Source: Amoebophrya sp. A120 (Eukaryota; Protista; Dinoflagellata). Taken from it: a stretch of DNA of 64,000 nucleotides. The stretch lies in assembly GCA_905178155.1 (NCBI GenBank), contig CAJINV010000011.1, positions 3,375,077-3,439,076 on the forward strand. Reading direction: 5' to 3'. This document shows, in pieces, positions 6,458 through 63,873 of this stretch; the stretch's first letter is position 1; each line of letters starts with the position of its first letter. The translations under genes were made by a program, and so were the position numbers. The notes below the pieces were generated by a model, which was not told the origin of the DNA, did not search any database, and saw nothing but the letters and a program-made list of their open reading frames with translations.

Positions 6458-9400
6458 ATGGCGAGCCTGCAGGAGCGGACCGCTCCTGCCGCGGAGCGCT
6501 TAATCCAGTCCTTGCTCGAGCGCAATACCGTGAGGAAAAATCCCCCCTTCCAATGATATTAATTGAAATGGAAATCGGTGATGATCCAGGACTTGTGTAT
6601 TGATGTAGAGGCGGACCACTGCAGGTGGATGCAAGGCCTGGGCAGGGGTGTTTTGAGGTAGGCACTACGCAGGCCGCTCTCTGTCGAGTTGTAGGTCTAA
6701 CAGCGTCAGCACAAATCGCTTCCGTAAAAATGCACCGGGCTGGCTGGAGTGGCCCTGCTCTTGGTCTTGCAAGACAGACGCGATCATCTGAGGTCACAAA
6801 TCAGCGTTGCAAATTTATTTTAGGAGCATATGGCTGTATTTCAGAGCAGGGGGGGCTTATTTTTCCTCACAATACGGAAGGCGGGCGAGCTAGACGAAAA
6901 GCGGGCGCAGCGCATGAGCAGTATCATCGAAGGCATTTCTCTTCATCAGGGGCGCATGATGTTGCTGGCGGGCCGTCAACCGAATACAACGTCTGACATG
7001 GTGAAGCCAGGAGAACTGTCTTCTACTTGTTCGCCTTCTTCTCCTTCCGCGGAACTGCACCACCAGGCCAGCGCGCGGTGGTCCCAAGCAGCGAAGCAAG
7101 TGAAGCGGCGCATCTCCGGGGGCACGGAGGATTTGGACGCTAGTAACAAACTCCTATCTTCGCGGGGACTTAATACGGGACGAGCTGGAAAGGGCCTTCC
7201 TGCCGGAGTTGGAGGAGCTGGGCTGCGCGAGACAGTTGCCGCAGTGGCAGCTGCTTCGCCGAACAATCCCAGCCCAGCACTGGATTTTTCATTATCTACT
7301 TCGCAATTCCGGGCAAGAAGTAGTGCCGCCCTGTCGTCCACCAAAATAAACACAATGCCCTCGTCTACTTCCGTCAAACGGCAATACAGCACCCGCGGAG
7401 CTGCCCAGGGACTGCAACCGGAGCAGAACCTCCTCTGCCCGGCCGACATCTTCAACTACGTGGCCTTCGGGCAGGGTTCGCTCCGGCCGGACTCCCCGGA
7501 GGTGCAAGTCGCGACGGTGCTGTCTGGGGATGGTGCGCAGCACGTCGAGGAGGCCCAGGAGCGGCAGCTACAAACCGAGCGCGCTTCCCGGGGCTTCAGC
7601 ACCGCCGGACCGGGAAACCAGCACGCCCTGGACCTGGTGCGGCAGCGGTTCGGAGAGGAGAACTACGCGTGGCCCCCGCGGGGGTCTTCGAGTGTAGTTC
7701 TGGGTGGACATCAACAACATGGGCAGCAAGTGAACAACATCCCGACACCTCCTGCTCCAAAGGAGGTCGACGAAATAAAATCACAGCTGGGGACAGGAAC
7801 TACAACAAACGTAGTACGCAAGAACACGATCATGGCCGCTCCGCCTGCAGCTCCTTCGACCAGCAGGTTCAGCGACCGTATCCACGAAGTGCTGGCTCGC
7901 AACAGGGAGTTGCTACCCACTAAAATCCTCGTAGAGCAACATGATAATGATAAAAAGTACGACCAGACGGCGAAAGAAAATAATGACAATAATCTCCCAG
8001 AAGATAGTAAAAATCCGAGCAGCACGGACTTCTACACGACAATGCCGTCTGCCCCGGTGAAGACTTTTTTTCCGTCTCTCGCTCCGGCTATCCCTTCCAC
8101 GCTACATATTCACCTGAACGAGCAGAACCAAGTAACCGCGGGAAGTACAACTAGTAGAAGAACCTCTCCTCGTAGTAGTAGAGCCAGCCCGGTTCATCTT
8201 ACATCCTTCCGTGACGGCGCCAGTCCACCTTCTCACGCCGTCCAGATCCAGACGGTACATGACCGAACTATGACCTGCTCAAACGTTACAATCTCAAACG
8301 TTACAATAGAGTTTGGATTTTGCCTTGCATGACGAGCATGACAGACTCGGACAGCATTCCACTTTCTGCAGTACAAATTTCGCCAGATTGTAGTGCGGTT
8401 TGGGACTGCGGAACTTGTCATGCGCAAACCTATGAGAGTTGGCTACATAATGCATCCATTGCATCACAGATCTCGATATTCTATTGTAACGTTTGAGATT
8501 GTAACACCTGAGCAGGTTATACGAACGGGAGACCATGTAACCGTCTCCGTACCGATAAAAACGGGACACACGGCGCGACCTCTAGTTAATACTAGCCGGC
8601 AAAGCCCAATTCCGGCGAGCCCAATTTCGCGGCCGCGCGCGACGTTCTTGACCGTGGATGACCCAACCGGAAAAATTCCGCAGCTCATGCCGTGCCACAG
8701 CAGTCCGCGGCCGCTCCGCGCGGGTTCTAGAAGTAGTTCTTTGGAGCGCATTCGGCACGGTAATAAACCGGTCGTGACCTCGGTGTTTGGTGCGGATGGT
8801 GCGATGGTGACGTATGGCAAACCGGCCTTGCTTATCAAATGTAAAAATGTCTGGGTCGGGAAGAATGCAACTTGTGATGCTGTCTCTGCATTATACAAAA
8901 ATCTGTATTGCATGACCAGCAAGAGGGCTCCAGTTTGTGCTACATGGAGGGGGTATTTCTCATGCGGGATAGGCATCAGAAAGCCCGCTGAAAATCTGTG
9001 ATGCCAGGCTATGCATTAGTTATGCGTCATGTAAAATCTGCATGACATCCAGACCCAGACATTTTTACATTTGATATTGCTGCAGCCCACGTTGCGCTCG
9101 CCGTCGATGCGCGCGGGGGCCTCCGCAGCTTCGAGTGCAGCGAAGAAGTCTACTTCACGGTGGAGTACAACTAGCCCGGGGGCGAGGAGCGGGCGAGGGT
9201 CGGCGGGTGCCTCTTCACCGGCACTGTTCAGTCACCAGAGCTATCAAATGTGAAAATGTCTGGGTCTGGAAACTTGTGACGCTGGGTGGCGTCTCATGAT
9301 GAGGCCACAAGTGCTGGCTCAGCATGACAAGTTTCTGAGCTTCTAGGTGTTGCCTATTCTGCATGACAAACTGCGTTTCTGCATCACAGAAAAGTGGGGC

Positions 9401-11305
9401 TCTTGGGTAACGTGCATGACAGATTTAAGAGTCATGCCAGACAAGCATGACAAACATGCATTCTTCCAGACCCGCCAGACATTTTTGCATTTGATAAGAG
9501 CTTCGTGGGGCAGGACGAAGCGACCGTGCTCCAGCAGCGGGCCGCAAAGCGGAAGCGGCAGGAAGAGTTGCGGGCGAGCAAAAAGTATGCATTGCAAATA
9601 TGTCTGGGTCTGGAAGATTGCGAGATTTGTCATGCTAGTTTGGCATGACTCTTAACTCTGTATTGCGTGCCCAGGAATAGCCCCTCTTGTCTGTCATGCA
9701 GAAACACTGTTTCTCATGCGGAATAGGCAACACAGAGCCGCGCAAAAAATCTGTCATGCTTGGCGGTGCATTACAGTGCGCTTTCTATTCACTGGCATGC
9801 ATCACAAATTTCCAGACCCAGGCATATTTGCATCTCATAATAAGTTCACGAACATTTTCTACGGGTCGGAGTCTCTGTTCCACGGCGCGGATCTCTCCGT
9901 GCGGAGCCCCACGCAACTGGAGTACCAGAAAAGGCTCGAGGAAGAGGAGAAAAAAGATGAAACATCGAGTCGGAACACCTTCACATTGACGAAGCAAGTT
10001 GGAGAACAAGAAGAAGAAGAAGACCTTGCTGCGAATGGTACAACCGCAAACAACGAAAAAAATCACGACATATTTTTCGCACACCCGGAAATTGAAACTT
10101 TCGCGCAAAAAACGCCGGGGAGTGCTGCAGGGGCGAACGAAGCAAAGACAGAGAGTAGTAGAAGAACCACATCAGTAGCAGCAGAAGTTTCCCGAATCGA
10201 GCAGATTCTCGCCAGCAGTCCAGCTGCGACGTCGACACTTCCTTCGGTGGATGAAAAATTGAAGCAGGAAGACATTACAACAGGAAAAATCCCGGCAACC
10301 AAGAACTCTTTTCCTCCAGCCGAACAAAGTTCTAGCATCAAACCCGACGGCGCAGTAGAACTTCAGCAGGAAAAAAACGAAGGTGGAATGACGCCCGAGA
10401 TCAACAAAGCTGGGGATGACTTTCATCTTCAATTGGGACAGAACTTGGACAATGTCTCAGCAAGAACAAAAAAGAGGTTCTCGGTCGGTGCTGCGGGTTC
10501 CGTGACAGTCGTTCCAACGAGTGTAGTAGAGAAAACTAGTACCGGCGATCATCTTGATCTAGAACTACTTCGAGAAGATGACGCTGAAGCAGGGGGAAGC
10601 AGCACGTTGGAAACGGAGGTAGAAGATGAAACAAGAACTGGTGCAGCAGCGCCACCTTTGTCCACCTCGGCAGCTTCATCTGCGAAAGTAGAGCGTCAAC
10701 AACATCTCCACCACATTGTTCAACACGACGGCGCGAGCCGGCTCTATTTTTACCAAGAACAAAAGACAAGTTCTGGCACTGAAGATCAGGTAGAGCTGCA
10801 CGACGAGGACGACGGCAACAGGGGGCAGCGCGAAGAACCTACTGCGGTTGTTCTTGAGAATATCATGAGTGGCAAAAAAGCTGAAATAAGCACTTTTGCT
10901 ACTGCGGATCCACAACAAGAGCACAACCCCTTGCCTTCAAACTCGAGCACCGACAAACACACCTCCCGCAGCGAAGCGCATTTCGTCGCCAGGATAAAGA
11001 AAAAGGTACTTTTCTTGAACTGATTCTTTCCATGATGAGTATGTTTCATTTATTGTTTCAACGCACTGTACCTGTAGTCACTGCTCCTCGATTCGTGTAG
11101 AGTTTTTGTTTCACTATCACTAGCGTTGTTGCTTCTATCACAGGTCGCGAAGACCCGGCCCGACGTCCCAGAGGAGTCAGTGGAAGTGGAGACTGGACAT
11201 CACGACAGTTTCGCTTTTGTCTACGGCCTCGATCCGGCCACGAACCAGCGCGAAATGCTGTTCGTCGCTCCGAGAATAAAGAAGGGGGCTTCTACTTCCG
11301 GATGA
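6458..11305 (+). CDS. Hypothetical low-complexity (S/P/E-rich) protein; 5 introners plus a GT-AG intron at 11006-11143
   Basis: The ORF segments 6374, 6830, 8393, 9071 and 9716 (with a short exon at 9502-9585) join into one frame on element removal; last exon 11144-11305 ends in TGA. Confidence 0.65.
6526..6874. mobile_element. Introner, family C; DR CGCAA/CGGAA
   Basis: IR gtgaggaaaaat / atttttcctcac; removal gives LERKAGEL. Confidence 0.8.
8269..8521. mobile_element. Introner, family B; DR CGAAC
   Basis: Long TIR, perfect DR, frame restored. Confidence 0.9.
8833..9076. mobile_element. Introner, family A; DR TTGCT
   Basis: TIR tatcaaatgtaaaaatgtctgggtc; perfect DR. Confidence 0.9.
9242..9496. 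mobile_element. Introner, family A; DR AGAGC
   Basis: TIR plus perfect DR; frame restored. Confidence 0.9.
9586..9839. mobile_element. Introner, family A; DR AAAAG/ATAAG
   Basis: TIR plus 4/5 DR; joins RASKK-FTNIF. Confidence 0.85.
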
Positions 11306-12165
11306 GGACGGCTAGTTTAATATTTCTTTGGCGGGCGGGCTTGCACTGGCTGGAAGAATGTTGTACATAGTGATAGTTCTTCACTTTGCCCCTGTAAAAT
11401 GGATTACAAATTTGTGATGTACATGTATGCCTATCTGAACTCAACTAAGCACACCGCTTGTTGTTGATTTTGCGACGATACAAATGAAATGACGATGTTT
11501 CGGTTTCCATTTTGCTTGATGCATTCATCAGTGTTTGAAACTGAACCATGTGCACGAGAAACAAAGCCTCCTGGGTCCGTCGCGCACCAGGAAATGCATA
11601 TAAGTAGGTGTTTTGTGCGGTTTTGCACTTGTTCAGGAATATTAAGTAGCGGTAAAAATACGCGTGGCCGTGTCGAAGTCGATCTTAGGAGTTTATGATG
11701 AAGATGATCCTGGTGCATGGTCAACGCCACACCGTTCGCGAAGCGAAGAACGATCCTTTTGCGATTTGCCGATGCTAGTAGTGTGTCCTGTCGTTTCGTT
11801 TTTCTGGTACAGCCGGACAGTCGTGACTCGATGTGAAGGCTCAAAGGGTTCCATGACCTGGACCTTTGACCTTCGCGTTCGGTTCCAGAACTTTCGTTTC
11901 TACTCACTTACTTCCCCCTCCGGGACTGCTTACATACTTCTTGCACTTTGTTTCCACAAAAACGACCTGGTCTCCCTCAAAGGAGGAATTCGCTCCCGGT
12001 TCACAAATAAGTAAGTACTTAGAGACGGCTGCAAATGAATATGTGGAAATATTTCTTCTGGACGTGAACGTTTCTCGCCTGCATGCTGCCTTCCTACCTG
12101 TAATTACATTTACCTAAACCTAAACCTAAAAGCCTGCTCTGCAAAAACCGAAGTAGAACAGAATC

Positions 12166-19500: not shown

Positions 19501-22500
19501 GCGGCGGTCAACGTCGACCTTCCGCCGCTTGGAAAAAATTCGGTATCTTCCGCCGCGCCGATGACGATTCCCGTTGGCAATATTAAGCGCGAACCGTCCG
19601 TCACGCCGCGGGACAGTCGGCAGCTCGTTACTGGTGCTTTTTCTGTGGCGGAGTCCGAGTCTGTCGAGTCTGCGGTGCCGCAAGGAACAGTAATTGTCGA
19701 CGTCGATGAGAACAATTTACCTGCTTCTGCAGTTGGCGTTGTGGACGAGCCAACGGTTTCTACTGCAACTGTAGCACCTGCTGCAGGAAAAGATGTCTAC
19801 GCAAAGACAGCCACCTCGGTCGCGGGAGAGACGAACGTTTTCGATGAAGAAGCGAAACAGGAGGAGGTACAAGAATGCGCGCCAGCGTACGAATCCCGAG
19901 CGGCTGACAGTGACACCAAAGAAACCACGGAACCAGTCGGGTTTGCAGGAGGTGCAAGTGCTGCAATTAGTGCATGCGAAGAAGCCGACGTTCTTCCCGC
20001 AGTACTACCAATACCGCTTGTTGCACAAACTCACCCTTCGCTACAACCTGCAGAAGTTCCGGTTGCGGCCACTACTAATGTGCTCGAGCCAGCGGGAGTA
20101 AGTTCGGTGATGAGACGAACAGAGCAGAAGGAATGCGCAACACATGACGACACCCCTGCAGCGCAAGAACAGGCGCAGGTTCAAAATGTCGAAGAACCCT
20201 CTGTCATCCCCGGTCTCGTCGTTCCCGCGGAAATAAACAGGGTCTCTTCAACATCATCTGCGGCAGTGGTACCTCCACGACCGCAGGCTGCTTCACATCA
20301 GCCTGGCGTGGTCAGCTCTACCACTTGTAACACAGACAAATTTGCGGCTTTTCGGGCCAGGGTCAACATCATATGGATTGCAAAAATGTCTGGGTCTGGA
20401 TGAAGCTTGTGATGCTAAAATGTGGATGATGGAAACAGTTCCGAATGCAACACAGCATGACGACTTTTCAGAACGCTTTCTCATACTATGAGATAAACTG
20501 CGTTTTTGCGTGTACAAAAGAGGCCGCGACTTTTGTTGGCTATGCAATACAGATTTCCTAGGTATGGAGAGCTAGCATTACAAGTTGCAAGCTTCCAGAC
20601 CCAGACATTTTTGCATTTGATACATCAGCGGTTTCGACAAATATTTTGCGGACATTGGGCTGACCGAGAAGTTGCAGAACCTCGAAGCCGCAGTTTTGGA
20701 GCAAACAAAAAGCGTCTTCGCCCAGCGAGAGGAAAGGATCAAGGAAAAGCGGGCGAACATGCAGAAGAAATTCTCCCGCGTTGCGCACAAAGTGGCTGCG
20801 TTTTTTCAAGAAGAAGCGAAGCAGCTGGTGGACGCGTGTGCGAGGGAAAATTCGCCGACGAAACGGGACGCGTTGATCCTGGAGTTCGTCGAAAACAAGG
20901 AGCGGGTAGTGGCGGAAATTCAAAAGAATGAAAACTTTCTACTCAGAAAGAGGAAAGAGCCGTTGGCGGGGCGAGTAGAGGAGCATCGTGCGAAGAGCGC
21001 CAACAAACTAGGCACGGGAGCTCCTCCTGCTGCTTCTCGTCGGGGGGAAAGTAAGAATAAGTTTCGATTTCTCGGCGCCCGTGAGGACCATGCAAGTGAC
21101 CACGACCCGGATGGTATGTAGTGAGGTCACCGAACGGTTCTAACCGGGGAGTTTTTTTGACACCCAGACAGCAAAATGGCCGGCAGTTTTCAAGCGGCCG
21201 GAAGTGTTTTTGAGCATAAAAAGTTTTCACTTATCAAGCGGCCGGGGCGTCTGCGGCAAAATAGCCCGGGCGGATTCTATCGATTCGCACTGGATAAAAC
21301 GACGCAGGGGAGCCGGCAAAAGGGGCGCCCTTCTGAGGCGCCCACCGCCTTAGTTTCTGGCGGTTTGGGGCGCCCAAAAAGGAGCGCGCAAAAAACGCGC
21401 CCAAAATCAGAACAGCGAAACAGCATGGCACGGCCGCGATTTCGGAGCATTTTGGGCGGCCGCGAAAGCGGCAGCCTTTTCGCCGGTTTTAGAGCCTGGG
21501 GAGCTTTGCAAAAGGCGCCGGCGTGAAAAATAAAAACGCGAAAAATAAAAAGCGCGCCAGACGCGCAAAGCCAACCCGCATGCTATGGGCCCGGTTTTTC
21601 TTCGCTTTTTGGGCGCCCCCCGTGGCACCCGGATCGGCCCCATAGCATCGGGGCTGGCTTTCGAAAAGGAATTTTGGAAATGTGCCAAAGTTTGCGACGT
21701 TTCCCACGTGGCCGCCATACCGTGCGGCATAACGTTACTCACGGCGGTATGGCGAGCCCATAAAAAGCAAAGCCGCGGCCACGGCTGCGGTCGGCAAAAA
21801 AACGCCCACGACCTCACTACCCCCGCCCCGGCGGCTATATTTGGTACTTTTCCAAAAAGCACGACCAGACTTTCGGGGCCGCATTTATTCGCCGGCAGAG
21901 GGCGAAGCTTTCCCGCCTCCATCATCGCAAGCGCGCTCAACGCGGAGACCTACGCGGAGTATCGGAAGTCTTTGGCTTTTCAGGAGCCTGGTGGAACAAG
22001 AACAGCACCGGAAGTTGCAGTGGATCAGGCTGCGCTCCTTCGTGCTGCTACGGTGCCTCTCGCGTCGGGGAAAAGGACTACTTTTGCCGGGGCGACGTCT
22101 GCAGGGGCAACGTCTACGGCCCCAGAGATCGAACCCGGCAGCCAGAATGGTCCGCGGACTCAACGACCTCACGGGCGCCAGGCTCAGACACCTTCGCAGG
22201 GAGAAAATTCTTGTCACGGTGAAAATTCAAGTTATGGTGCTGCAAATATTTATTTTCCCATTACCGGCGGCGGCGACTGTCATCGCGCTGCCGACCATCG
22301 GCCAGCACGACCCTTGAAGATGCCCGCCGGACGAGGAGATCAAGCTGCACATCAAAGCCCGAGCGTAACTGCTTCTGTGCCGCCCGCCATCCCGCCGAAC
22401 TCTCCCCGCCTTCACGAGCTCTTTCAGGACTGCTTGACAGCGAGCGCGGAGCACGCACGAAAAACTGTGCAACAGTTCAGAAATAGAAATACTACCACCT

Positions 22501-24496: not shown

Positions 24497-27400
24497 ATGC
24501 TAGAATTGCTGCAGCCGCGGCAACGAAGGCCCGCGAGAGAGGAGATGGAGAATCGAGCCGCGCAAGGCCGCATTCGTGGTTTCTTCCTTGCAAGCATTTG
24601 TCTCTGCGCCGTTGGCATCAATTTGTTCATCTCCGGGTGGGTGGCACACGCGGTCTCTCAAAACCAGGTCGACGCAGGAGAGACGTATACGCGGGCACTA
24701 GCGGTAGCTGGCAAGGATAGCCGTGAAGCTGCCGACGCAGACGAGAATGCTGAGGAGTCAACTGACACTTCTGCGGCGGCCGCGCTACCGCCACCAAGTG
24801 GAGGAGCGAAAACGTTCGCTGCTCGACAAGTTGCAGCTGAAGTAGATCATCATGGACTATCTTCGCTTGTTCCAGAAAGCAGCGCTGCTGGAGTTGCACC
24901 AGGAGCGGGACCGGCCACGGAGGGGACCACGCGCGGTCCGTCGCAAGTGGTAGCAACAGCAGCTTCGGGAACGGTTTCGTTTGTGCAACAAGGGCGTGCG
25001 ACCAACCTTGGCAGTACGAGCATAGAGACGGATTTTTCCGAGGGAGATGAGTCATCGAACCTGGTTCGTCGTGGAACCGATGCTAAGCTGCAGCACGGCG
25101 AGCGTTTCTCACCGTGGTCTGTAGGAGGACCAGCTGTATCTTCGGACGAAGACGACGGAAAGAACATCACGATAGAAAAGGCACTAAAAAATGCTACGGC
25201 TACAACTAATGCAGCGTCTGTTGTTGATTCGGTCGCAGGTAGTTCATCTCGAAGCGAACTGGTACGTGGATTGAACCGAAGGCAAAAACGTGAGGTGATT
25301 GTGGACACGTGCATCCGCCAAATTTACGAGGATATGCAAGTCGGTTGGAGCTCGGACGACGATCTCGCTGCCCCGCAGGAAAAGCTGTTGAGCGTCGCTC
25401 TGATGCGACGGTTCGTGAATGTGACCAGTGGAGAATTTCGCTTCTCGCTCGTTAGAGATTTTGCGGAGCGACAAGTTGCGGCGGGCCGGGTGGTTTGCCA
25501 ATCACGCCTTCCTATCCGCCCAGCATTTTTCCCGGAAATGTCTTTCTTCCTGTCGACTACGGACGGGTCGCTCGTCGTCAAAAATGACGGGGACGAAGGC
25601 AAAATGGGACCACCCAACTGGCTGGACCAGACGCAGCGTTTCTTCGAGCATGCGTTCGACCTCGACGGGGACAAGCTGGTTGCGGTCTACGAACCGGGCC
25701 TGCAGTGTCCAAGTCTGGCGGCGCCTGGCCTCCCCCCGCCGGAGGAGGACCCTAGTACCCCGGAAAGAGTACTACCTGGACCTCTACTGGGCCCCGCCGC
25801 CGCAAGGTTTGACCTGTTCCAGTGTTTGCTGCATCAGTCCGATTGGTTCTCCCGCGCTTCGGTCAATACGGTCTCGATTCAGGAACAGCATGACCAGCAG
25901 AGCTTTTCCGCGTTGGAATTGGAGCAGCAGTTGTTCATGATGCAACGGCGGAGCCACCCTTCCATTGACGAAAATGATCTTCGGTTTTTGAAGTCGCATT
26001 TCCACGATAAGCATCACCACTTGGGGCATAAAATTGATGAGTTCGCAGAGTCCGTACCAACAATCAAGGGCGTCCTCCAAAAGCATAACCTGGCTGACAA
26101 GGTTGTCTACATTCTCCAAAAGTTGATGGTCGGAGAAATCTACACGGCGCGGAACGGCAAAAACTTCCACCACAGCACGCTTGCGTTGGACTTACGGTGG
26201 CGAAAAGAGAAAGACCGTAATGAAAATACAGAAAATGAACGCTGCCGAGAGCTGCTGTTGGATGTAGTGCACGGGATAGCCTCCGCACTTGGTGTCGAAG
26301 ATCAGGAACGAGTTTTCTTCGGTTACTTGTACGCCAAACTGTACGCCAAAAAAAAAGGTGAGGACCCGCGGTGGCATTGGGACGAGGAAATCAAAACGCG
26401 TCACAAAGCAACAGATGAGCAGGGGCGTTCTTTCATGTACAACGACTTGCCGAGATTCTTTATCACGTTCAAGCGAGCTTTTGACCTGCAGGACCCGGAA
26501 CTCGATGTTGAGGACCAGGGAGAGTTTCTCCACGATTTTAAAAATGGCAACATTGTAGGTCGAGGGAACGGTGGTGGTTGTAGTGTGCACAATCGATTCC
26601 GAGTCTTCATTGCCCGTAAGGCTTTTCCCGCGCTTGTGTGGAAGAATGCAGAGTTGCTCGTGGAAAAAGTGAAGAAGGCGGCGCATGCGCATCAGCAGGA
26701 GATAGAAAAGCAGCACGCGGCGGAACAAGCAGAACATGACCGTGTGCTTCAGAGAGCTCGCGACCACCAGCACAAAAAAGAACAACAGGAGCGATTGCCT
26801 CGGCACAGCGCAGCACCCAAAGCGGCCCCGCAGCCAGCTTTCATCACAACGCTAAAGGGCGTTGAGCACGAGGCTTTCTTCTTCTGGAGCTTGGACGGCG
26901 CCGAGGTGAACAGATTGGGGGACAGCGGCTGGGACGACGGCGGCAAAAGAGACGAATACAAACGCCTGGCGTACGGTGTGCTGCGCGAGTTCCTCTACGC
27001 GATTCATATTCTGGTAGTCCACGCACGGAGCTTCGACTCGACGACTTCGAGTCGGTTTTCGTTTTCCTCGGATAGAAGTGTGATGCCTCATATTGAATCA
27101 CGTGTGAATGAAGAGAAAAATACGCCGGTATACAACGCACGCCTTTACTACGAGTGTTCCCACAAATACTATTTTGATCACGTCCACAACCTCCGATACG
27201 ATTACGACGTCGAGGAGAGGACTAAACTTGAAGCATGTTACCGCAACCGTCCGTTCGAGCATCTACTGCACCAGCTGGACTATCAACTGCAAAAATGTCT
27301 GAGTCTGGAAGATTGCAACTTGTCATGCTGTTTTTGGACTCTAAAAAAATTTGTATTGCATGACCAGCAATAGGGGCACAGTTTGTGCTACGCGGAAAGG

Positions 27401-27946
27401 GCATTTCTCATGCGGAAGGTGCATCAGGAAGCCCTCTAAAAGTCTGCGATGCTAGGTCATGCATTACAGGCGTCATGTGTCATGAGAAACATGCATGACA
27501 AACTTGGCAATCTTCCAGACCCAGACATTTTTGCATTTGATATGGACGACAAAAACACGAAGTCGAAAAGGGAACACAATTGGGGTGTCATCTTCAGCCA
27601 TGATGCCTTCGAGAAGATGACCGATGAGCAGTCTGAGATGGCCGATGCCCAGCTGGATCATTATTTTTTGATGCTCACCGAAAGCGCGGAAGCGCTGGGT
27701 ATGGCAACGGATGAGGGCGAGGGTGATGTCGACCACTACTGGAAGCCGCTGCGTTCGCTTTGGTCAAAAACAAAAAAATTCTTCTTCCATCGGAGAAAAG
27801 GTATAATGAAAATAATGAGAGAAGAGCTACAGGCGACAGCCGAGGCGCAGCAGCAGGAAGAAAAAGCCCGCGGACTTGTCGATGAGCGAACTTGGAGTGC
27901 GCATCTGGCTCACCGAACAAAATCTTTGAACCAAATAACCTTCTAG
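24497..27946 (+). CDS. Hypothetical ~1000-aa protein with an N-terminal hydrophobic (TM/signal-anchor) segment; one introner
   Basis: Long ORF; FFLASICLCAVGINLFISGWVA; removing the element at 27281 joins HQLD-DKNTKS and runs to the stop at 27946. Confidence 0.7.
27281..27542. mobile_element. Introner, family A; DR TGGAC
   Basis: TIR plus perfect DR. Confidence 0.9.
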
Positions 27947-41967: not shown

Positions 41968-44900
41968 ATGCCGTCAGCGGACTGTGGGCCGCGGAAGGTG
42001 GAGGTGGTGGAGGGTGAGAAAACAGATGTCGAGCCGAATGGGCCCGTCGCACCCCCGAATGCAGAGTATTGTTCTTTTTGCAGTTTTTTTTTGATAATGG
42101 AGCTGATGTTGAAATGAAATTGCTGTACAGCTACAGACTCTAACATTGTTGAAATTATAAAAAAATTTCAAAAATATCATGCGATCATATCCTCAGCGCG
42201 CCCGCCGCCGACTTGAAGACTCCGCAGCGCCGCTCTTCCCAACCCACCACCCCGCCCAAAGTCAGCAACAAGACCGAGCCCGGAAGGCTGGATGCGAACC
42301 GCATTCAGTCGATCGGCGCGGGTATCGCCGGCATCAAGGACAACGTGAATGTCCTTGCGGGGAAAAAAACCAACCACCAAGTGTTGGAAGAAAGGAAGCA
42401 GCAGGCTGCACGGCATGAGCATCACAATAAGCACACAGGGAGAGGAGGTCCTCATCATGGACGAAATTTGGGAGGATCATCATCGTCGTCCCACAACAAC
42501 CCGGGTGGACGAGGTACTACAACTCGAAACAATAAAAACAACAACTCGCAGCCAGTGTCGGAGGAAGTCGTGCTCACTGTTCGGGTCGACGCGAACGTGT
42601 GCCACACCGGGGACGAAAGGAAGATTCCCTTCACGTTTTTCAGAAATTTGCCGAGATTTTTCTCCCCCGACAAGGACTTGCTGTTGCAATTAGATCAGTT
42701 TTGCCGGGAGAATGGCATCGCCAACGACCACCACGCGGAGAACCTCATCCTGCTCAAGACTCGGAAAGACGAGAGCAAGTGGCTTCTACGCGCGGAGGAT
42801 TTGCATTCCATCGAGGAGGAGGAAGAAGTGCGTTTGGTTTCCGGGACAGGGTTTGTTGCGACCTGTTTGGACCAAATCGAGAACGCGCTGCTCTTGCAGC
42901 CGTCTAGCGTGGATCACCAAGACCTTTTGTTTGGAAATAACTCCTCTACTAGCAACGGTGATTTCGGCCATCATCAAGGCGGATCGTTTGGAACCAACGC
43001 TGCAACGGGAGGTGGTGGAGGTCTTCAAGATCCACACAACTCTGCGAGTAAAGCAAGCGACCTGGACGTCGAGGGGTGGCTGGACTGTGTGTGTCGCAAC
43101 TCTGCCGTTCCCGGCCCTTTGGGCGAGTGGTTCGCGGAAACGGTGATCTTGCAAAAGGGGTTGTCCGTGCTGATCAACGGGTTGTTGGAATTGCACAAAA
43201 ACGACGACTTGCGGAAAATCGAAGCGTTGTCGGGCCCGATTTTGGCTTCCCTCGCAGTGTTACTTCCCTTCGACCAGGCAATTTCCTACGTAGTATCAAA
43301 TGTAAAAGTGTCTGGGTCTGGAAGAGTGCAACTTGTCATGCTAATTCTGGATGGTGCAAAAATCTGTGTTGCATGATTGCCAAAAGCTGTCCACTTTTGA
43401 CCAAGTTGAGAGGGCTCATGCAGACGATGCATGATAGAGGTCGGGGAGAATCTGTCATGCTGGGTCATGTATGACAGACCTCACGCGTCATGGAAAACCT
43501 GCATGACAAGTCTTCCAACCTTCCAGACCCAGACATATTTCCATTTGATACGTGGCGGACGAGTACATTCTCGACGCGGATTATCGCAAGAAAAAACTGT
43601 TTCACTGTGAACTTGTGATGCAGAAAATGGATCGCAGAAGTGTGTGTCATGCCACACATGCAAGACAATCGATTTATAGCTGTGTTTTCCCTTAGGAACC
43701 CCGCATGACAGATTTTCAGTGTTACGCGTAACAAACTTGTGATGCAGATTTTGCAAAATCACCTTCTCCTTCACCACAGTGAAATAGTTTTTTCGTGCGA
43801 TACGGATTTCTTTGAGTCCCTGCTCGCGACCATGTTTGGGCGCGTTCGGAAATCGATGTTCCGGTGGGAGTCCTTCTGTGCGAAGATGAAAAAAGCCGAG
43901 CAGAACTGCAACGACGTAGACATGGCAATGGCGTCGTCGCCCTTCGAATGCAACTTCAACATGTATAACCCGCTCAGGCGTTACAATCTCAAATCGGTTA
44001 CCATAGAATATCGAAATCTGTGATGCAAGGTTCTTGCATGATCCAGCCAACTCTCATAGGATTGCGCATGACAAGTTCTGGAGTCCCAATCCGCACTACA
44101 ATCTGGCGAAATTTGTATTGCAGAAAGTGGAATGCTGTCCGAGTCTGTCATGTTCATCATGCAACACAAATCCCAGATTCTATGGTAACCGATTTGAGAT
44201 TGTAACACCTGAGCGGGTTATAACATGAGCACGCGCCGGTCCGCGCTGACGATTATCGGGTTGCTGCTGAACATATGGATTGTAAATATGTCTGGATGTC
44301 TGGAAGAAAGCAACTTGTCATGCTAAGTCTGAATCATGTAAAAATCTGTGTTGCATGATTACCAAAAGCGGTCCACTTTTGACCTAATCGAGAAGCAGTT
44401 TCTCATGCAGGATAGGCATGATAGAACTCTCACAGAGTCTGTCATGCTATGTCCTACATACCAGACCTCATGGGTCATGGAAAACCTGCATGACAAGTCT
44501 GGCATTCTTCCAGACCCAGATATTTTTACATTTGATAGAACACCAGTTTAGGCCGCGTAGCCGCGGAGAAATGCCACCAAGCGGCGCTCCGACCATTGCC
44601 AACCGACGTGCTTTTGAAATGCATTGTGGTGCCGACAGCGACAGCAGGAACGAATGCAACGGCAGTGGGAACAAGCCCGGTCGTGCCAGACGAAACAGAA
44701 CGACCAGCAGACCGCTCCAGCAGAGATGTTGCAGCTCCAGATTCCGGGGGAAAAACCACCCCTACTGCGAACAACAACTCCAATCCCGGCGTTGTTTCTC
44801 AGTTGAATTACTACCACTTGATGGTAGACGCGTCGCACAACCTGTTGGACCCCGCACACACGCTCTCTACCGTTTTGTTCTCGTTTCTCGTCTCGCAGCA

Positions 44901-47900: not shown

Positions 47901-50900
47901 GGTGGAGTCGGAGTTCGTGAAGCGGTTCGGCAAGAAGAAAGCCGCCGTGAAGGAGGCGCCAAAAAAGGAGGACGCGGACAAGAAAAAGGAGGACAAACCG
48001 AAGTTGTATGGATTGCAAAAACGTCTGGGTCTGGAAGATTGCAACTTGTCATGCTAAATCCGAATCATGCAAAAATCTGTGTTGCATGAGTGCCAAAAGC
48101 TGTCCACCTTCGACCAAGTTGGGAGGGAGCTTCTCATGCAGGATAGGCATGATAGAGACCTCGCAGTTTCTGTCATGCTAGGTCCCTCTTCCAATGTGTA
48201 TCGGTTGAGGACTGCCCCCTTCATCCTAAGCGCCATCAGCCATGGTATCTGGAAAACCTGCATGACAAGTTTGCACTCCTCCAGACCCAGACATATTTGC
48301 AATGCATAAGTTGAAGCTGCTGACGATCATCGACGACCCCATGAAGCAGGGCGGTCTGAACGCGGCCTGCAAGACCCTGCCAGAACCCACGGTATTGCAG
48401 CGGGCGATACTGGACCTGGACGACGTAGAAATCGACGTGAACACCTTGGAATGGGTCCGGCGGGACCTGTGCCCGGATCCGGGCCAGTTGGCGCAGCTGA
48501 ACACGCTGCGGAACGAAAACAAGGGCGTCCCCTTCGCCGTGCCAGAAACCTACATGCTCGCGATCGCGCACGTATACTTGTTTTTGTAGCGCCGGGAATT
48601 ACTTCTGTACTTTGGGAAAATATAAATAACTAAACGCATTATCATGATGTTGAGCCTGGAAAAAGACTCGCTTGCCAATGCTGTGGCTTTGGATTTCAAG
48701 AATCAGTATCGAAAATCTATAGCGAGATGAAAACTACATTAGGTTCCCGGGTACATGCAGCGTCTGGACTGCTGGCTTTTTTCGCGCACCTACGAGGAAA
48801 GGCTGAAGAAGTGCATGACCGCGTACTTGGCATTTCAAGCCGTGATGCGGAGTTTGCGCACAAGTAAGGAATTTCGGAAGCTTCTCGGCCTGATTCTGTG
48901 CGCCGGGAATTACCTGAACGGGGGGACCGACCGCGGGCAGGCGGAGGGCGTGGATCTGGACGTGTTGACCAAACTTGACGCCGTGAAGGACGTGGAGGGG
49001 AAGATGCTGAGTTTTTGTATGCATTGCAAATATGTCTGGGTCTGGAAGACAGTAACTTGTGATGCTGAGTCTACACCCTGTAAAAATCTGTGCTGCATGA
49101 CTGCCAACAGTTGTCCACTTTTGACCAGGTTGACAGGGAGTTTCTCATGCGGGATAGGCATGATAAAGTTAGAGATCTCACAGCTTCTGTCATGCTCAGT
49201 GCTGCATTCCAGACCTCATGGGTCATGGAAAACCTGCATGGCAAGTCTTCCATTCGTCCAGACCCAAACATATTTGCACTTGATACTTTGGGTCGTCCAA
49301 CAATTTTTCACGGCGCCGTTTTTCACGCGGCAGCAGGGTCCGAACGGGGAGGACCCAAGAGAGCTGCTGTTTGAGGAGCTCCGCCCACTCTTCTCCGCGG
49401 TGCGGCGACGGATCGAGAAGTCGAGCGATGGCGTCGAGTCCCTGGCCAAGCAGGTGTCCGTCTCGATCGAGGACTACGACCAAATCGCGGACCAAATCAA
49501 ACAGGAGTGCGACCAGCGGTACGAGATGCTCCGCGCCTGCCTGTGCCAGTTCGAGGACCCCGCGGACAGTTTCCGGACGGTGCTTGCGCCGCTGTTCGCG
49601 ACCGCTTCGGAGTCGTATGAGAGTGCACAACGACAACCCCTCCTCGCCCTTATTTGGATGGCATGACAAGCAATACAAACACCAGCACAGCACATGGATG
49701 CTGTGCATCACATGTTCATGCGCCGATTGTAGCGGTGTTTCCAGAACTTTTCATGCCAACAGTGCTACAAGGCCACAACAACTGGATTGGGATTTTTGCA
49801 TGACAAACGAGGGGCAGGGGAGTTTTCCACCCTCATAAGCCCGTGGACGAGTTGATCGCGAAGAAAAAACAGGTAAAGCAGGAGTACGAAGATTTGTTGA
49901 AGTATTTCACGATGGGACAAGTGAAGGCGGCGACGTTGATCAAGATGATCGACGACATGCTTGTTCCCGGGGACCAGATCACGAACAAACCCGAAAAATT
50001 GAAAAAAGCCTACTTTGTCCCGCAGTTCTGCGGGAACCGCACCCCGACGGCAGACAGCATCATGGCCCTTTGGGACCTGAAGGAGCCCGAGTTGCGGTCG
50101 GAAGATATGCATTGCAAATATGTCCTCTGGGTCTGGAAACTTGTCATGCTGTTTGACGAATCCCGCGGACGCCTTCATTGACAGCCAAGCATGACAAGTT
50201 TTGGAATTGCTATAGTGTTGCTTATCTGCTTGACAAAGTGCGTTTCTGCATGACAGAGAAGTGTGGCTTTTGGGTGGCGTGCAGGACAGACTTGAGAGCC
50301 ATGCTAGCCGTGCATGGCAAGCCTTGCATTCTCCCAGACCCAGACATATTTGCATTTGATAGAAGAGTCGCTGGGACAAAAGAAGCCGCGAGCGACCGGT
50401 GCGCGAAAGACGGAGAATCGGCGGGGAATCCGGGGAAAAACTTCCACCGCGACGGGTGGTGCAGACGGGGCGAAGACGAGCGTGCGAGGTGCTGGGATTG
50501 GGAAGAATTCCGCGCTGAATGTTGGAAGTGAGAGTATTTCTAAAGACAGCACAGAACAACAAACCACTAGCACTGAGAAAAAAGGTGAGCAGGACAAGGA
50601 AGGTCCAAATCGTACCGGTGATGAAGTGGAGAAAACTGCTCATGGTGACAAGGCACCACCAGAGAAACAAGCAGGAGAGCTGCAAGGGTCAGCCGCAGGT
50701 ACACCAAATAAAGCATCGAATGCCGTGGTGGAACAAGTGAAGAAAAGCCCCGCAACTGCAACACAATCATCAGAAGACAAAGCCGCTGCAGCAGCGGACA
50801 CCAGCAAAGCTAGCAGCACAAATTCGCCAAAGCGAAGTCAGCGCCTCTCCGTCGCAGCAGCAGAGAAACAAGAGAACCACGACTCAACTTTGACGCCCAG

Positions 50901-54696: not shown

Positions 54697-54799
54697 AACC
54701 CTAGACGCAGTTAACTTACGCCACCGCGATGTCGTAAATTACGATCAATGCAGCAGCAGCTGTAGAATGCCACTCCTAAATTTCATGAGGAGGCTCAAT

Positions 54800-56789: not shown

Positions 56790-57538
56790 AATATTCGCAC
56801 TTTGTGCGGTCGACTATTGCGGAGCCACCTGCACGAAGATGCATCCGGAATGTAAAGGGTACGTCGAGCAAACGGCCACGTCGACCTGTGTGCTCTTCGG
56901 CCTTGTGTTATCCACAGTAAATTTCCCGTACACGACGTACAAATGCTGTCTACTCCCTTCAATCGTAGTCATACCCGTACATTTACAAAACTTTCCTTCA
57001 ATCTTAGTCAGCATGACAAGTCTTGAAGGAAGTTGTCGAAATTTGTCGTGCATTTTGTACATGTGCGGGAATTTTGTATAGCATATGTGTCAGGAAAGGT
57101 GGACTTGACCGCGGACGGCGGTAAGGACAAATTCCACAAATGGTGCGAAGACAAGTGCTATCAACTGCAAATACGTCTGGGTCTGGAAGATGGCAACTTG
57201 TCATGCTAGATCTGAATCATGCAAAAAATCTGTGTTGCATGATTACCAACAGCCGCCCTTTTTTACCAATTTGAGAGGGGATTTGATTTCTCATGCAGGA
57301 TAGGCATGATAAAGATCTCACAGAATTTACCATGCTAGGTACTGCATTCCAGACCTCATGGGTCATGTAACACCTGCATGACAAACCTTGCATTCATCCA
57401 GACATGTTTGCAATGCATAAGTGCCCTGCAACACTTACAACTGCACCAAGCGAGGGGGGAAGTCCAGCCTCCGCGGGCCGACTGAGCTGCATCAGTTTGT
57501 TGATGCTAGCCTTTTCGCTTCTTGTGGCTTGGAACTAA
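56790..57538 (+). CDS. Small Cys-rich PAN/apple-like protein with a C-terminal hydrophobic (GPI-like) tail; 2 introners; start not resolved
   Basis: DYCGATCTKMHPECKGYVEQTATSTCVLFGLV-SGKVDL...WCEDKC-PATLTTAPSEGGSPASAGRLSCISLLMLAFSLLVAWN*. Confidence 0.5.
56909..57085. mobile_element. Introner, singleton (imperfect TIR ..AAATTCCCG.ACA); DR TGTGT
   Basis: tgtgt|TAT...ATA|tgtgt; frame restored. Confidence 0.75.
57159..57419. mobile_element. Introner, family A; DR AGTGC
   Basis: Family A body; perfect DR. Confidence 0.9.
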
Positions 57539-59029: not shown

Positions 59030-60972
59030 ATGACAGATCCATTCCGGCTCTACTTCAGAGACCAGTCCTCTGACGAGGAGGAAACGGACAGGCTTTTGTA
59101 CTTTTACGGCGACGAAAGTTCGAGCGACACCTCTAGTAGAAGTAGCTCCTCGGCAAATAGTACTAAAAACTCGAACGAGGTCCGCGTTGTCGAGAGGCCT
59201 GTGCAGATAAAAAACCAGGATGCCGGCGGGGAGAATCACGAGGCACACGATTCTTCGGCGCAAGACGTTGAGAGCTTGCCGAAGGGTACTACAAGTCTTC
59301 AGACAATAAGAACTCGGCGCGACCAGCGAGGTCAAGAGCCGGTACAACTTTTCGGCGGTCCCGCCCCCGCTGCGAGGAGGTCGGCGGCATCCGTCGACCA
59401 CCACCACCACCAGGAGGCAGGAGCTGCGTCAGGTGCCGCTACAACTTCTAGCGGGCATCATGATTCTGGGCATCATCATCATCACCATCATCATCACCAC
59501 CGTAGTGGCCACGGCACAGAAGCTGCGGCCAAGGAGGACGGCGGCGGCCTGTTGGCGTACTTTTTCAAGGCGGTGTACGTCGAGGGTAGCGGTAAAAACT
59601 ACGGGATCAGTGCCGGGGACGATGATGAAGAGTTTGGGCACCATGGTACCCACCACCATACGCACCACAGCGGAAGCAAGCATGAGGACAGCAAAGTCCA
59701 TTTGATGGCAAAAGGTTTGACGAAAAGCAAGAACAGCGAAAGCCTTGCGCCGGGGATGATCACAGACGGAAAGTCGCCCGGTGATAGAGGTGTGTGTTGC
59801 TGTCCGCTTGATCGCACACACCCCATAGGCGTATGCGGAATGGACAAGAGGCACTCGCCACCTTGGCACTTGAGGGTATAAATTTTGGAATTCGTTCTCT
59901 GTTTTCAGTTCATGTTTTGCTCATTCCTGTTTGCTTCATCTGCGATGATCATCTTCTTCTACTATCTTGCCTTACGTTTTCGTAGCGCGCGATATAACGC
60001 AGCGCGCATCCGTCACCGAAAAAACAAAAACTCCTCCCGTCAGGTATTTATGCCATGCTGCACGTACGTGAATTGGGCGGGCTGCGACGCAGTTGCCATA
60101 TTAATGTCCACCACCTGGTGGCTATCCTGAGTAAAAACGTACCCACACCAGAGTCAGGATGGGGATTTTGCGACACAAACCTAGGAGTTTTGTGAGTCAC
60201 GCATGACAAGTTGCACTCTGCAGTGTAGTGCAGGTTAGCAAGTGCAGCCGCGTCACAGATTCATCTGCTCATCCTGTTCACAGCATCACAAATTCCAAAA
60301 CACGATTGGAAATGGCTCTCATGCGGATGCGCATTACAAGTCTTCCTGTCTTTGCGACTGGTGTGGGTACGTTTTTACTCAGGATAGTGGCTGCTTTTTT
60401 GGCCTGTGTTTTACGTTACCTGCTGCTGGTATCAAATGTAAAAATGTCTGGGCCTGGAAGGTTACAAGGTTTGTCATGCATATTCTGCATGAGTCAGGAT
60501 GTCTGTAATGCATGATCTAGCATCACATATTTTTAGAGGCCTTCCTGATGCCTATTCCGCATGACAAATGCCCTCCACGCGTAGCACAAACCGGACTCCT
60601 CTTGCTGGTCATGCAATACAGAATTTTTTAGAGTCCAAAGTTAGCATCTTCACAAGTTCCAACCTTCCAGACCCAGACACTTTTGCAATCCATAGCTGGG
60701 AGCCGACGTCCTACAGTACGACAACGGACGCCGACGACTATCTTAATAGGGTAGGCGCCCCAGTACAGGCAGAAAATAAACAGAGCGCGAGCGTAGACGT
60801 AGCGGCCCTGCGGAACGTACCAACCATAGCCCCCCAGCACCGGAGCGGATCTGACGGTCAGAAGTTTCCGGACCGCGACCAAGCACACAGCGTTTACACA
60901 GGCATAATCAACGCGCCGCAGGCGGCGAACCCGGGTGGCAGTAACGGAGGTGGCAGTGCGGACAATGTTTGA
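59030..60972 (+). CDS. Hypothetical His-rich protein with a Cys-rich membrane segment; GT-AG intron 59876-60043 and 2 introners
   Basis: Poly-His tracts; joined exons give VFMPCCTYVNW...STTWWLLFWPVFYVTCCWEPTSY; stop at 60972. Confidence 0.6.
60123..60386. mobile_element. Introner, family G; perfect 29-bp TIR; DR GTGGC
   Basis: tatcctgagtaaaaacgtacccacaccag / ctggtgtgggtacgtttttactcaggata. Confidence 0.92.
60430..60694. mobile_element. Introner, family A (opposite orientation to 27281); DR GCTGG
   Basis: Body is the reverse complement of 27281-27542; perfect DR. Confidence 0.9.
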
Positions 60973-62314: not shown

Positions 62315-63873
62315 ATGACGGACCTTTCGTCCTCTCTCTCGGGAGCTTCAAGTTCCACTTCAAGTTCCGGGTCCTCTTCGTCCAGGAGAAGTTTTATCAC
62401 GACCAGCAACTCGAGCTCATCCTCTGCGTCGTCAGCCTCAGAATCGGCTTCTTCTACGTCCTCTTCCAGCGCGTCCGGTTCTTCATCTTCCAGCAGTTTT
62501 TCGTCAGCTAGAGACAGCAGTCACCTAGGCCCACCGTCGGAAGTGCCAGAGATTGACGATGATGGGTCAAAAATGTCATCCTCTGTGGCCACCTCTTTGA
62601 TGTCCTGGACTGTGAAAGAACCGATTTATTCACATTCCTCCTCCCACCATCGAGAGCCAGAGAGCTCCATCACGGCCCGTGCCCGCGCGCTGAAGGCGCA
62701 GGAGCCGATTTTCCTCTTTGCGCCCTCGTCGAGAAGTGGCACGACATCATCGGCCTCTTCGTCCGGGAGCGGCTCATCTTCTGCCGCGGGGTCAAAGAGC
62801 AGCAAAGGTGGCTCTGGCTCCTCGTCATCGTCTGGGGGTAGTAGTAGCAGTAGCGGTAGTTCTAGTGCGACTGCGAGCAAAGAGTCCTCGTCCACAGCGA
62901 AGAAGTCGTCAGAAAAGTCTTCGAGCAAGCAGACGTCTTCCTCCTCCTCCAGTAGCGCGACGTCATCATCCTCTCCCGTGACCAGTTCTACCGATCAAAA
63001 GAAAAGCACTTCCGAGAAGAGCAAGCGGAAAAGTACTAGCAGGAAAAGCATAGACGACTCGAGTGGTGCAGCAGGGGCAAACATGAAAAAATCCGTCTCG
63101 AACATTACAACCGTAACGGAGCCGGGGCTACACGCGGAGGGCGAAGCACCTGCGCCAGGGACTTTGAACATGGCTCAGCCGCAGGTAATTCTTTCCGGAT
63201 CGGAGTCCGCACAAGATTCTTCTTCATTTGCGGCTAGCAGTAAGGAGCAGAACTACGGGACGAATTATGCGGGGAGTAGAACCTCTGCAGCACAACGACG
63301 GGAGCTGAAAGTGCAGCGGGCACTGGAGCAAACGAGACGCGCACTGGACGCTGGCGCACGGATGCACGCGGTCGGCGCGGAAATGACGGCGAAGAAAAAG
63401 GCGCTCGCGGAGGCGAAACGAGTAGCGGACGACGAACTGGTCCGGCGGTCGCAGCTGGAGCGGATCGCAAGGCGGAAGGGGTTGGGAACCCGGGTGGATT
63501 TGCTGACCAGTCACGACTATGAAATGCAAAAATGTCTGGGTCTGGAAGAATGCAAGATTTCGATTTGTGATGCAGGTTTTCCATGACCCATGAGGTCTGG
63601 GATGCGAGACCCAGCATGACAGATTCTTTGAGGTCTCTATCATGCCGTTCCTGCATGAGAAACTCCCTCTCAACTTGGTCAAAAGCGGACAGCTTTTGGC
63701 ACTCACGCAACACAGATTTTTGCATCATTTAGATTTAGCATGACAAGTTCTAATCTTCCAGACCCAGACATTTTTTCAATCCATAATGACGACGTGCATT
63801 CGAAAGCGGAGCGGGATGCGTTCCTAGCCGGGATGTTTTCCCAAGGCATGGAGATGTTGGAAAGGAGAAAAGA
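62315..63873 (+). CDS. Ser-rich hypothetical protein, 3'-incomplete (continues after a GT donor at ~63874)
   Basis: Poly-Ser ORF; removing the element at 63518 gives TSHD-DVHSKAERDAF. Confidence 0.6.
63518..63785. mobile_element. Introner, family A (opposite orientation to 48007/49018); DR ACGAC/ATGAC
   Basis: TIR plus 4/5 DR. Confidence 0.88.

Follow-up and report, generated by a model that had tools for sequence, protein, structure and literature searches.

Introner elements of Amoebophrya sp. A120 have been described as insertions of ~240 nt that carry an inverted repeat of the form TAT + 7 nt + AAA, are flanked by direct repeats of 3-5 nt, form introns with non-canonical borders for which a hairpin model was put forward, and lie in genes arranged in unidirectional blocks (Farhat et al. 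2021, PMC7789003). The same account reports most spliceosomal proteins and U2, U4, U5 and U6 in A120, with U1 undetected, and gene models built from transcript alignments. Introners of Polarella glacialis and Aureococcus are described as canonical-site introns formed in both orientations (Roy et al., 10.1101/2020.10.14.339549; Aureococcus as cited there). Nonconventional introns of Euglena are reported to follow the code 5'-N3CDG…CH'GN5-6|R (PMC12501133), and inverted-repeat-derived non-canonical introns of Fritillaria to require the U2 spliceosome (10.1101/2025.08.15.670264).

We analysed a window of 64,000 nucleotides of the A120 genome (contig CAJINV010000011.1, positions 3,375,077 to 3,439,076). 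A scan for TAT…ATA inserts gave 37 candidates, 5 of them overlapping alternative pairings, leaving 32 elements of 148-328 nt with a 5-nt target-site duplication (TSD), all within + reading frames; three shuffled windows yielded 2, 1 and 1. All nine coordinates named in the original prediction are starts of such elements with 5-nt direct repeats as flanks. For three window genes the annotated A120 protein is a 100% match, and the elements share with the published introners the TAT-N7-AAA ends, the direct repeat and the non-canonical intron position (PMC7789003): TAT is followed by 7 variable nt and at least three A, the border repeat falls within 3-5 nt, and the copies form repeated families in A120 genes. 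Judged by sequence, they are the published A120 introners and not a different object; the elements, and the idea that they are spliced in an unusual way, are already in print. Relative to the published text, the additions are a TSD of exactly 5 nt, a 50:50 orientation, the cut geometry, a free duplication and terminal triplets that are constrained but not absolute. In the literature searched, which for PMC7789003 covered the main and supplement text, we met no account of neutral orientation or of the cut geometry; in the main text of PMC7789003 the word 'strand' is absent and the passages shown for 'orientation' concern gene blocks, and in its supplement text only a gene-orientation legend came up.

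To the window copies we added 352 from one metagenome assembly, with strands assigned by our own codon model, and defined 12 families over both sets. Across 382 elements the end consensus is TAT-N7-AAA, and positions 11-13 are A in 85-92% of ends. When copies were detected without using the repeat, 208/270 carried an exact 5-nt repeat, 3 a 4-nt one and none a 6-nt one. With a median length of 258 nt, inverted repeats, a fixed duplication and no coding capacity, the elements have the features of MITEs. No transposase was found among 42 window ORF pieces (Pfam), in the loci or in a scan for long elements.

The first host gene encodes a GMC-oxidoreductase/aldo-keto reductase (+, Pfam) and holds 80..407 (family 5, orientation A, TSD 5/5), where the annotated protein P0004 equals exact removal of the element plus 5 nt, 534..786 (family 8, A, 5/5; P0004 and the ortholog P0005) and 833..1051 (family 4, A, 5/5, opposite to 49616; P0004, with an ortholog that is not decisive). 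Gene-model junctions are available for 2525..2774 (family 0, B, 4/5), 3121..3379 (family 0, B, 5/5) and 4843..4990 (family 1, B, 5/5). A 1057-aa + ORF spans 8269..8521 (family 8, B, 5/5, opposite to 534 and 43964), and ORF evidence covers 8833..9076 (family 0, B, 5/5); 9242..9496 (family 0, A) and 9586..9839 (family 0, B, 4/5) lie opposite to each other in the same gene. ORFs together with the codon model cover 20372..20622 (family 0, A, 5/5), 28773..29041 (family 0, B, 5/5) and 29119..29425 (family 6, A, 5/5), and a 1089-aa + ORF spans 27281..27542 (family 0, B, 5/5).

The gene ankyrin-formin 1 (+) contains 35112..35320 (family 2, A, 5/5), whose predicted fold pairs the ends (z -6.4). Gene-model junctions likewise exist for 35462..35740 (family 9, B, 5/5), 35796..36049 (family 0, B, 5/5), 37448..37603 (family 1, B, 5/5) and 39968..40255 (family 3, A, 4/5, the difference being synonymous). 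In ankyrin-formin 2 (+) an ortholog covers 43294..43550 (family 0, B, 4/5), 43582..43802 (family 2, B, 5/5, opposite to 35112; predicted fold pairs the ends, z -5.0), 43964..44222 (family 8, A, 5/5) and 44274..44537 (family 0, B, 5/5). Further downstream lie 48007..48308 (family 0, B, 5/5; annotated protein), 49018..49285 (family 0, B, 4/5), 49616..49837 (family 4, B, 3/5) and 50106..50361 (family 0, A), the last opposite to 48007/49018 in the same gene model. The hosts of 56909..57085 (family 1, B, 5/5; a short + ORF) and 57159..57419 (family 0, B, 5/5) are weakly supported. A 412-aa + frame spans both 60123..60386 (family 3, A, 5/5) and 60430..60694 (family 0, A, 5/5, opposite to 27281), and 63518..63785 (family 0, A, 4/5, opposite to 48007/49018) is followed by 29 codons and then a GT donor-like site.

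The original prediction placed all host genes on the + strand, and the codon model agrees for 31/32; the exception, 60123, is called - with a margin of 2.6, and the 412-aa + frame that spans it contains an in-frame GT-AG intron. It also held that the frame is restored at each site it named. This is firm for 35112, 48007 and 49018, by annotated proteins, and for 43582 and 43964, by the ortholog; ORF length supports it for 8269 and 27281, and it is weaker for 63518, where the codon model agrees weakly, and for 60430. Overall, removal of the element plus 5 nt leaves 88/90 confidently phased copies in frame (40/41 and 45/46 by orientation), and retention would break the frame in 30/32 window elements. 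Removal of the element plus 4 or plus 3 nt broke long ORFs, and lengths of -1, +2 or +8 fitted the orthologs more poorly at 16/19 junctions, 833, 2525 and 50106 not being decisive. Orthologs show the pre-insertion state alone and were not counted as proof of splicing. Together, ORFs and transcript-based gene models, the latter an indirect line of evidence, point to removal of the elements from RNA.

Alignment bore out the claim that members of one family lie in opposite orientations. Once the outer 35 nt of inverted repeat had been trimmed on both sides, all the named pairs aligned in reverse only, with reverse against forward scores of 160 and 8 (35112/43582), 270 and 34 (8269/43964), 237.5 and 30 (27281/60430), 210 and -7.5 (48007/63518) and 229.5 and 20 (49018/63518); the best of 500 shuffles scored 0.5. 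Two opposite pairings within one gene, 9242 with 9586 and 50106 with 48007/49018, had been missed. The sense and antisense count over window and metagenome loci was 50:50 in 245 strand-called copies of 12 families (chi2 7.2, df 12, p=0.84), with neither orientation depleted; this count omits 139/384 copies with a weak strand call or from families under three members. Family 0 stood at 56:65, its lean of 12:5 in the window being gone in the loci (55:52). Related pairs sharing a locus had the same orientation in 19 cases and the opposite in 21. As in Polarella and Aureococcus, inverted-repeat DNA elements with duplications form introns in either orientation, as judged from ORFs and gene models; unlike the both-orientation classes 6, 8 and 10 described there, which are biased to one orientation, the A120 elements are unbiased (10.1101/2020.10.14.339549).

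Either-orientation removal had been taken as an argument against U1/U2 recognition. As argued, this is not supported: whichever way an element lies, its inverted repeats present identical 5' and 3' ends, and since the two ends read alike, both orientations would be the same substrate. Nor does orientation alone speak against a spliceosome, because canonical-site introners in both orientations (Polarella, Aureococcus) and U2-dependent Fritillaria introns exist. Non-ordinary recognition nevertheless stands, on other grounds. Transcript-based gene models lose the element plus 5 nt exactly at 15/15 junctions, both orientations included. A GT/GC-AG border at the exact junction is possible in 0/32 window elements and in 18/260 copies; as a set the elements lack the GT/GC donor and AG acceptor of canonical U2 introns. 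The 260 duplications show no base bias, the 260 copies do not favour a purine as first base of the exon, and G at the putative +1 is not enriched (88/260). Ordinary recognition is excluded because GT-AG is missing and the flanks are unbiased. Polarella and Aureococcus introners, in contrast, use or recruit G[TCA] and AG sites, whereas the A120 elements recruit no site (260 unbiased duplications; 10.1101/2020.10.14.339549).

The ends themselves are conserved after insertion and the duplication is not: substitutions reach 1.1% in the terminal triplets (11/1014 positions) and 4.1% in the duplications (52/1260; p=7e-6), the latter close to the interior rate of 4.3%. These rates, with no conventional border in 32/32, uphold the predicted symmetric signal at the ends, except that TAT/ATA is not absolute, 19/339 copies carrying one change. 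Conservation at positions 1-3 and 11-13 is sequence-specific, and these positions are paired in 96-98% of copies, positions 4, 5 and 7 in just 39-56%. The first T was altered 0 times at transcript-5' ends and 7 times at 3' ends, and the third position 5 times and once. This donor/acceptor asymmetry (Fisher p=0.005) is post hoc, comes from 19 copies, 5 of them with weak strand calls, and its p rises with strand-call stringency (0.048 at margin 5, 0.14 at margin 8).

We saw no G-U preference in the stem, private changes giving G-U and A-C in 34:31 cases (interior 327:325) and mismatches at positions 8-30 in 159:140 (n.s.), and predicted folds of sense and antisense copies did not differ (p=0.22). 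A post hoc G-U excess at positions 21-30 (65:35; sign-flip p=0.0013) vanished with private changes (13:10), and a lower substitution rate at the same positions was a scan-pattern artefact (3.5% against 4.3% in an unascertained set).

Imperfect duplications indicate where the cuts may fall. In the gene models, the base retained at TSD position 5 of 2525 is that of the right copy, which sets the 5' cut at least 1 nt before TAT; at 49018 the left copy supplies position 1, setting it at most 4 nt before; and at 49616 the left copy supplies position 3, setting it at most 2 nt before. These three junctions, all in orientation B, would put the 5' cut 1-2 nt upstream of TAT and the 3' cut 3-4 nt past ATA if one geometry is assumed. 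Mismatches are spread over all five duplication positions (15, 13, 9, 16 and 12), and the frame is intact in 23/25 copies with a mismatched duplication; the direction of mutation at mismatched duplications, in 58 metagenome copies, was uninformative for placing the cut. The analysis narrows the question of how these introns are removed, standing since 2021, to figures that can be tested: orientation is unbiased, no sequence marks the junction, and the putative cuts lie 1-2 and 3-4 nt beyond the repeats.

We give an even chance to a relaxed, U1-less spliceosome of U2 type that measures its cuts from the inverted-repeat ends rather than from GT and AG. The transposon-like inserts, bounded by TAT…ATA and a duplication of 5 nt, lie in genes in either orientation and are probably spread by an integrase-like transposase that makes 5-nt duplications. 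The spliceosome would cut 1-2 nt before TAT on the 5' side and 3-4 nt after ATA on the 3' side, inside the duplications, and the pre-insertion mRNA would be restored. A 5' cut at -1 would let the intron begin N-U-A-U, which resembles the GUA donors of this genome except that +1 would be free; as branch point, the A that opens the terminal AUA is a speculative candidate. We favour a spliceosome because the tolerated changes look donor-like, six canonical-looking donors all begin GTA and leave the fourth base free, most spliceosomal proteins are present along with U2, U4, U5 and U6 while U1 is undetected, and Fritillaria sets a precedent. Against it, a second step without any AG lacks precedent in the searched literature, the G-U and fold tests do not show RNA pairing, and G is not enriched at +1. 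Fritillaria borealis resembles A120 in its bulk of MITE-derived non-GT-AG introns, removed there by an adapted U2 spliceosome, as may hold for A120; it differs in a conserved U1 and in borders that prefer certain dinucleotides, AG-AC or AG-AT, where the repeats end, whereas in A120 U1 is undetected and the borders lie within duplicated sequence that is random (PMC11282704, 10.1101/2025.08.15.670264, PMC7789003). If confirmed, these results would show how widely splice-site recognition can depart from GT-AG. The random orientation offers a free natural experiment, each end being donor in half of the copies and acceptor in half; because the ends swap these roles, asymmetry across ~30,000 A120 copies would isolate RNA-level from transposase requirements.

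More tentatively, any insert bounded by TAT-N7-AAA inverted repeats, in either orientation and whatever the sequence at the insertion site, might be removed by a pure ruler mechanism, with cuts 1 nt ahead of its start and 4 nt beyond its end and free terminal dinucleotides. If so, a spliceosome or a new enzyme would render a transposon class invisible to protein coding and remove thousands of transposon introns, in convergence with Euglena, and the element would be a portable scar-free intron.

Rather unlikely, in our estimate, is a non-spliceosomal RNA system, either a structure-specific endonuclease with a ligase or machinery of the Euglena type, that acts on the paired ends and makes its cuts at fixed spacers. 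In its favour, neither junction dinucleotide is constrained, pairing is almost complete at positions 1-3 and 11-13, U1 is undetected in A120, and the Euglena code follows the same logic with a spacer length shown to matter (PMC12501133). Euglena shares the paired inverted motif, a short 5' and longer 3' fixed spacer, direct repeats and a suspected MITE origin; its introns have a CDG/CHG core, spacers of 3 and 5-6 nt, an exon-start purine and a reported circular product, whereas the A120 elements have a TAT/ATA core, putative spacers of 1-2 and 3-4 nt (sum 5) and no purine bias, and the window elements do not carry the N3CDG…CH'GN5-6|R signature. Against such a system, the tolerated changes follow a donor-like pattern, a G-U preference is absent, and canonical introns of the same genes require the spliceosome anyway.

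The original prediction also allowed for the DNA itself as the signal, which sits poorly with cuts that look asymmetric relative to the transcript. A protein on inverted-repeat or subterminal motifs that marks both ends and directs cutting of nascent RNA is improbable. Conservation is sequence-specific with no RNA wobble tolerance seen, and the shared interior motif GCAT[GC]AC averages 2.9 copies per interior, compared with 0.03 in shuffles, and shows no strand bias (347:364); transposase binding alone, however, predicts the same motifs, and no such protein was identified.

A hairpin, direct repeats, exact restoration and orientation blindness are the signature of template switching. Template jumping across direct repeats, or precise DNA excision, is still very improbable: the copies of the duplication do not stay identical (their mismatch of 4.1% per position is close to the 4.3% of the interior), even the 3/5 copy is removed exactly, the cuts look polarised by transcript and the elements are present in assembled DNA, while a laboratory artefact cannot account for intact conserved frames, as retention breaks 30/32.

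Least probable, and already largely refuted, are ordinary splice sites near the ends on each strand used by a normal U1/U2 spliceosome: canonical introners in both orientations exist (10.1101/2020.10.14.339549) and a frame-preserving GT/GC-AG pair lies at most 15 nt from the ends in 127/260 copies, but 133/260 have no such pair, most available pairs would add residues, and the gene models are exact at 15/15 junctions, none of which allows GT/GC-AG.

In the window there are 32 elements, 148-328 nt in length, that start with TAT, end with ATA and carry terminal inverted repeats of ~30 nt (the scan returned 37 candidates, 5 of which were overlapping alternative pairings, and 2, 1 and 1 in shuffled sequence). 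Every element is flanked by a 5-nt direct repeat, identical at 5/5 positions in 25, at 4/5 in 6 and at 3/5 in 1. Taking out an element together with one copy of this duplication (element+5) opens + frames of 1085, 1057, 1089, 1702 and 678 aa; among the host genes are two for ankyrin-formins and one for a GMC-oxidoreductase/aldo-keto reductase. Removal of +4 or +3 instead broke the frames, and retention disrupts the frame at 30 of the 32. All 32 lie inside reading frames, some in putative hosts, versus ~66% coding in the element-free window (rough p=2e-6); this excess may reflect targeting, or elements being lost faster when outside exons.

Annotated proteins that bear the name Amoebophrya sp. 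A120 match the exons of the window at 100%. The available text of Farhat et al. (PMC7789003) reports 29,850 repeated introns in A120, with inverted repeats of TAT, seven variable bases and at least three A, and direct repeats of 3-5 nt; it proposes a hairpin model and states that U1 snRNA was undetected. The end profile of our elements is the published motif, so that, given the protein identity, the elements are already known. The observation is nevertheless real, and concerns a testable property of a known class, orientation neutrality and cut geometry, that is apparently unreported: neither is stated for Amoebophrya in the literature searched, which was mostly non-subscription and included the available text of PMC11453091, and supplements may hold data.

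The original prediction held that members of one family are removed in either orientation from genes that are all on the + strand, restoring the frame each time. With the inverted repeats trimmed beforehand, all family pairs it named align in reverse only. Opposite copies also occur within single genes (window starts 9242 vs 9586; 50106 vs 48007 and 49018). A codon model places 31/32 hosts on +, and the exception, element 60123, shares a 412-aa + frame with 60430. Frame restoration was upheld overall and is least secure at 63518 and 60430.

A pattern scan of one metagenome assembly found at least 156 loci, and the loci listed carry the window's families at up to 94% identity. The window plus these listed loci (the combined sample, to which the following counts refer unless stated) contain 382 unique elements (426 before de-duplication vs 4 in shuffles), and an exact 5-nt repeat flanks 208 of 270 elements detected independently of the duplication. 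Among 384 copies scored, 90 were phased confidently on both sides, and 88 of these are in frame once element+5 is removed, 40/41 in one orientation and 45/46 in the other. Orientation, counted in the 245 copies whose strand was called and whose family has at least three members, shows no departure from 50:50 (family 0, 56:65, CI 0.37-0.56; across families, chi2 7.2, df 12, p=0.84). Likewise, related pairs sharing one locus, a check free of strand calls, are 19 same and 21 opposite. Neither orientation is thus depleted in this sample, in line with the original prediction.

The annotated A120 proteins P0002, P0004 and P0007 span 15 of the 32 window junctions and lack exactly element+5 at 15/15, including family 0 both ways within one model and family 4 both ways. 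The models of these proteins were built from transcript alignments, which is indirect evidence of removal. Element+5 is also the best-fitting length against orthologs at 16/19 junctions, which reflects the pre-insertion state only. We infer that the elements are removed from RNA, with cuts measured from the repeat ends. Non-synonymous differences between the duplication copies place the cuts, since the gene model shows which copy survives: the right copy at duplication position 5 of element 2525, the left at position 1 of 49018 and at position 3 of 49616. A single geometry would fit these three cases (n=3), a 5' cut 1-2 nt before TAT and a 3' cut 3-4 nt after ATA, so that both borders would lie in arbitrary host sequence. 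In the listed metagenome loci the duplication ends at phase 1 in 65/124, a skew absent from the window, where phases 0, 1 and 2, assigned from ORFs, number 16, 9 and 7; the skew could be a phase-0 excess, given a cut at -1, or alternatively target preference or calling bias. At 505-1608, metagenome locus L021 has a family-6 element of 1104 nt that contains an unrelated insert and retains perfect ends and a 5/5 duplication; a transposase-like ORF is not evident in it. A frame on - stays open once element+5 is removed, suggesting that removal is length-tolerant.

Substitution rates were taken from copies selected independently of the search pattern. Terminal triplets are changed at 1.1% (11/1014) and interiors at 4.3% (373/8628; positions 11-13, 1.7%), while duplications mismatch at 4.1% (52/1260). 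With duplication mismatch as a post-insertion clock, the triplets seem to be selected after insertion and the duplication apparently not. TAT/ATA is not absolute: a single change occurs in 19/339 copies, in no case at both ends, and 7/8 phased copies with altered triplets are still in frame. Changes at transcript-5' vs 3' ends number 0 vs 7 for triplet position 1 and 5 vs 1 for position 3 (p=0.005, post hoc; 0.048 and 0.14 under stricter strand calls). This asymmetry fits a donor N-U-A-U with +2 invariant; six canonical-looking donors here start GTA, the fourth base being variable. Changes that create G-U pairs show no excess (34:31; interior 327:325), which counts against an RNA-stem reading, although the ends pair in predicted folds in both orientations (z -6.4 and -5.0). 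Interiors contain the motif GCAT[GC]AC 2.9 times each vs 0.03 in shuffles, with at least two copies in 266/339 and on both strands, a candidate transposase-binding site. Five-nucleotide duplications suit integrase-type enzymes. The available text of PMC12130899 describes an A120 family that has inverted repeats as well as Copia/Gypsy-like ORFs.

The original prediction argued against ordinary U1/U2 recognition on the ground of orientation independence. That argument is insufficient, because inverted repeats show the same ends either way; according to the available text of 10.1101/2020.10.14.339549, Polarella introner classes are introns both ways with canonical sites and a noted orientation bias, and Aureococcus, as cited there, likewise has introns both ways with canonical sites. 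PMC9860276, in its available text, uses a method that takes opposite-orientation insertions into account. The conclusion itself stands, since GT-AG borders are lacking, flanks are unbiased and U1 is undetected: strand-specific conventional signals were sought at the exact element+5 junction, where a GT/GC-AG border is impossible in 32/32 window copies and possible in 18/260 overall, and no base is preferred in the duplications.

We give about an even chance to removal by a U2-type spliceosome without U1, and favour it over the alternatives; repeat-derived non-canonical introns of Fritillaria require the U2 spliceosome (10.1101/2025.08.15.670264 and PMC11282704, available text). A separate system like that of Euglena, where the available text of PMC12501133 describes a paired motif with fixed spacers, is a possible but less probable agent. 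It is doubtful that a DNA-bound marker directs removal. Template skipping or DNA excision is quite improbable. Hidden canonical sites are the least probable explanation.

A separate GC-rich repeat of ~735 nt occurs three times (13757-14491, 21114-21848 and a truncated 33826-34406), 89-93% identical, in one orientation throughout and starting with a donor-like GTATGT. TAT…ATA ends and a duplication were not found, nor was a match among the listed metagenome loci; it is possibly another intron-forming element. The two formins with ankyrin repeats are paralogs arranged in tandem, at 31563-40710 and 42153-51537. Within an annotated intron of 2.5 kb, one exon end of formin 1 occurs three times (32107-32227, 33565-33671 and 34415-34509), and at 33060-33229 the long formin-1 intron contains a repeat with a 30-nt period in five copies, which includes ATTTCGATTTGAAAT. 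The second formin is divided in the annotation, P0007 beginning inside the formin region; a single frame spans 42153-48586, and its ortholog P0001 has 2108 aa.
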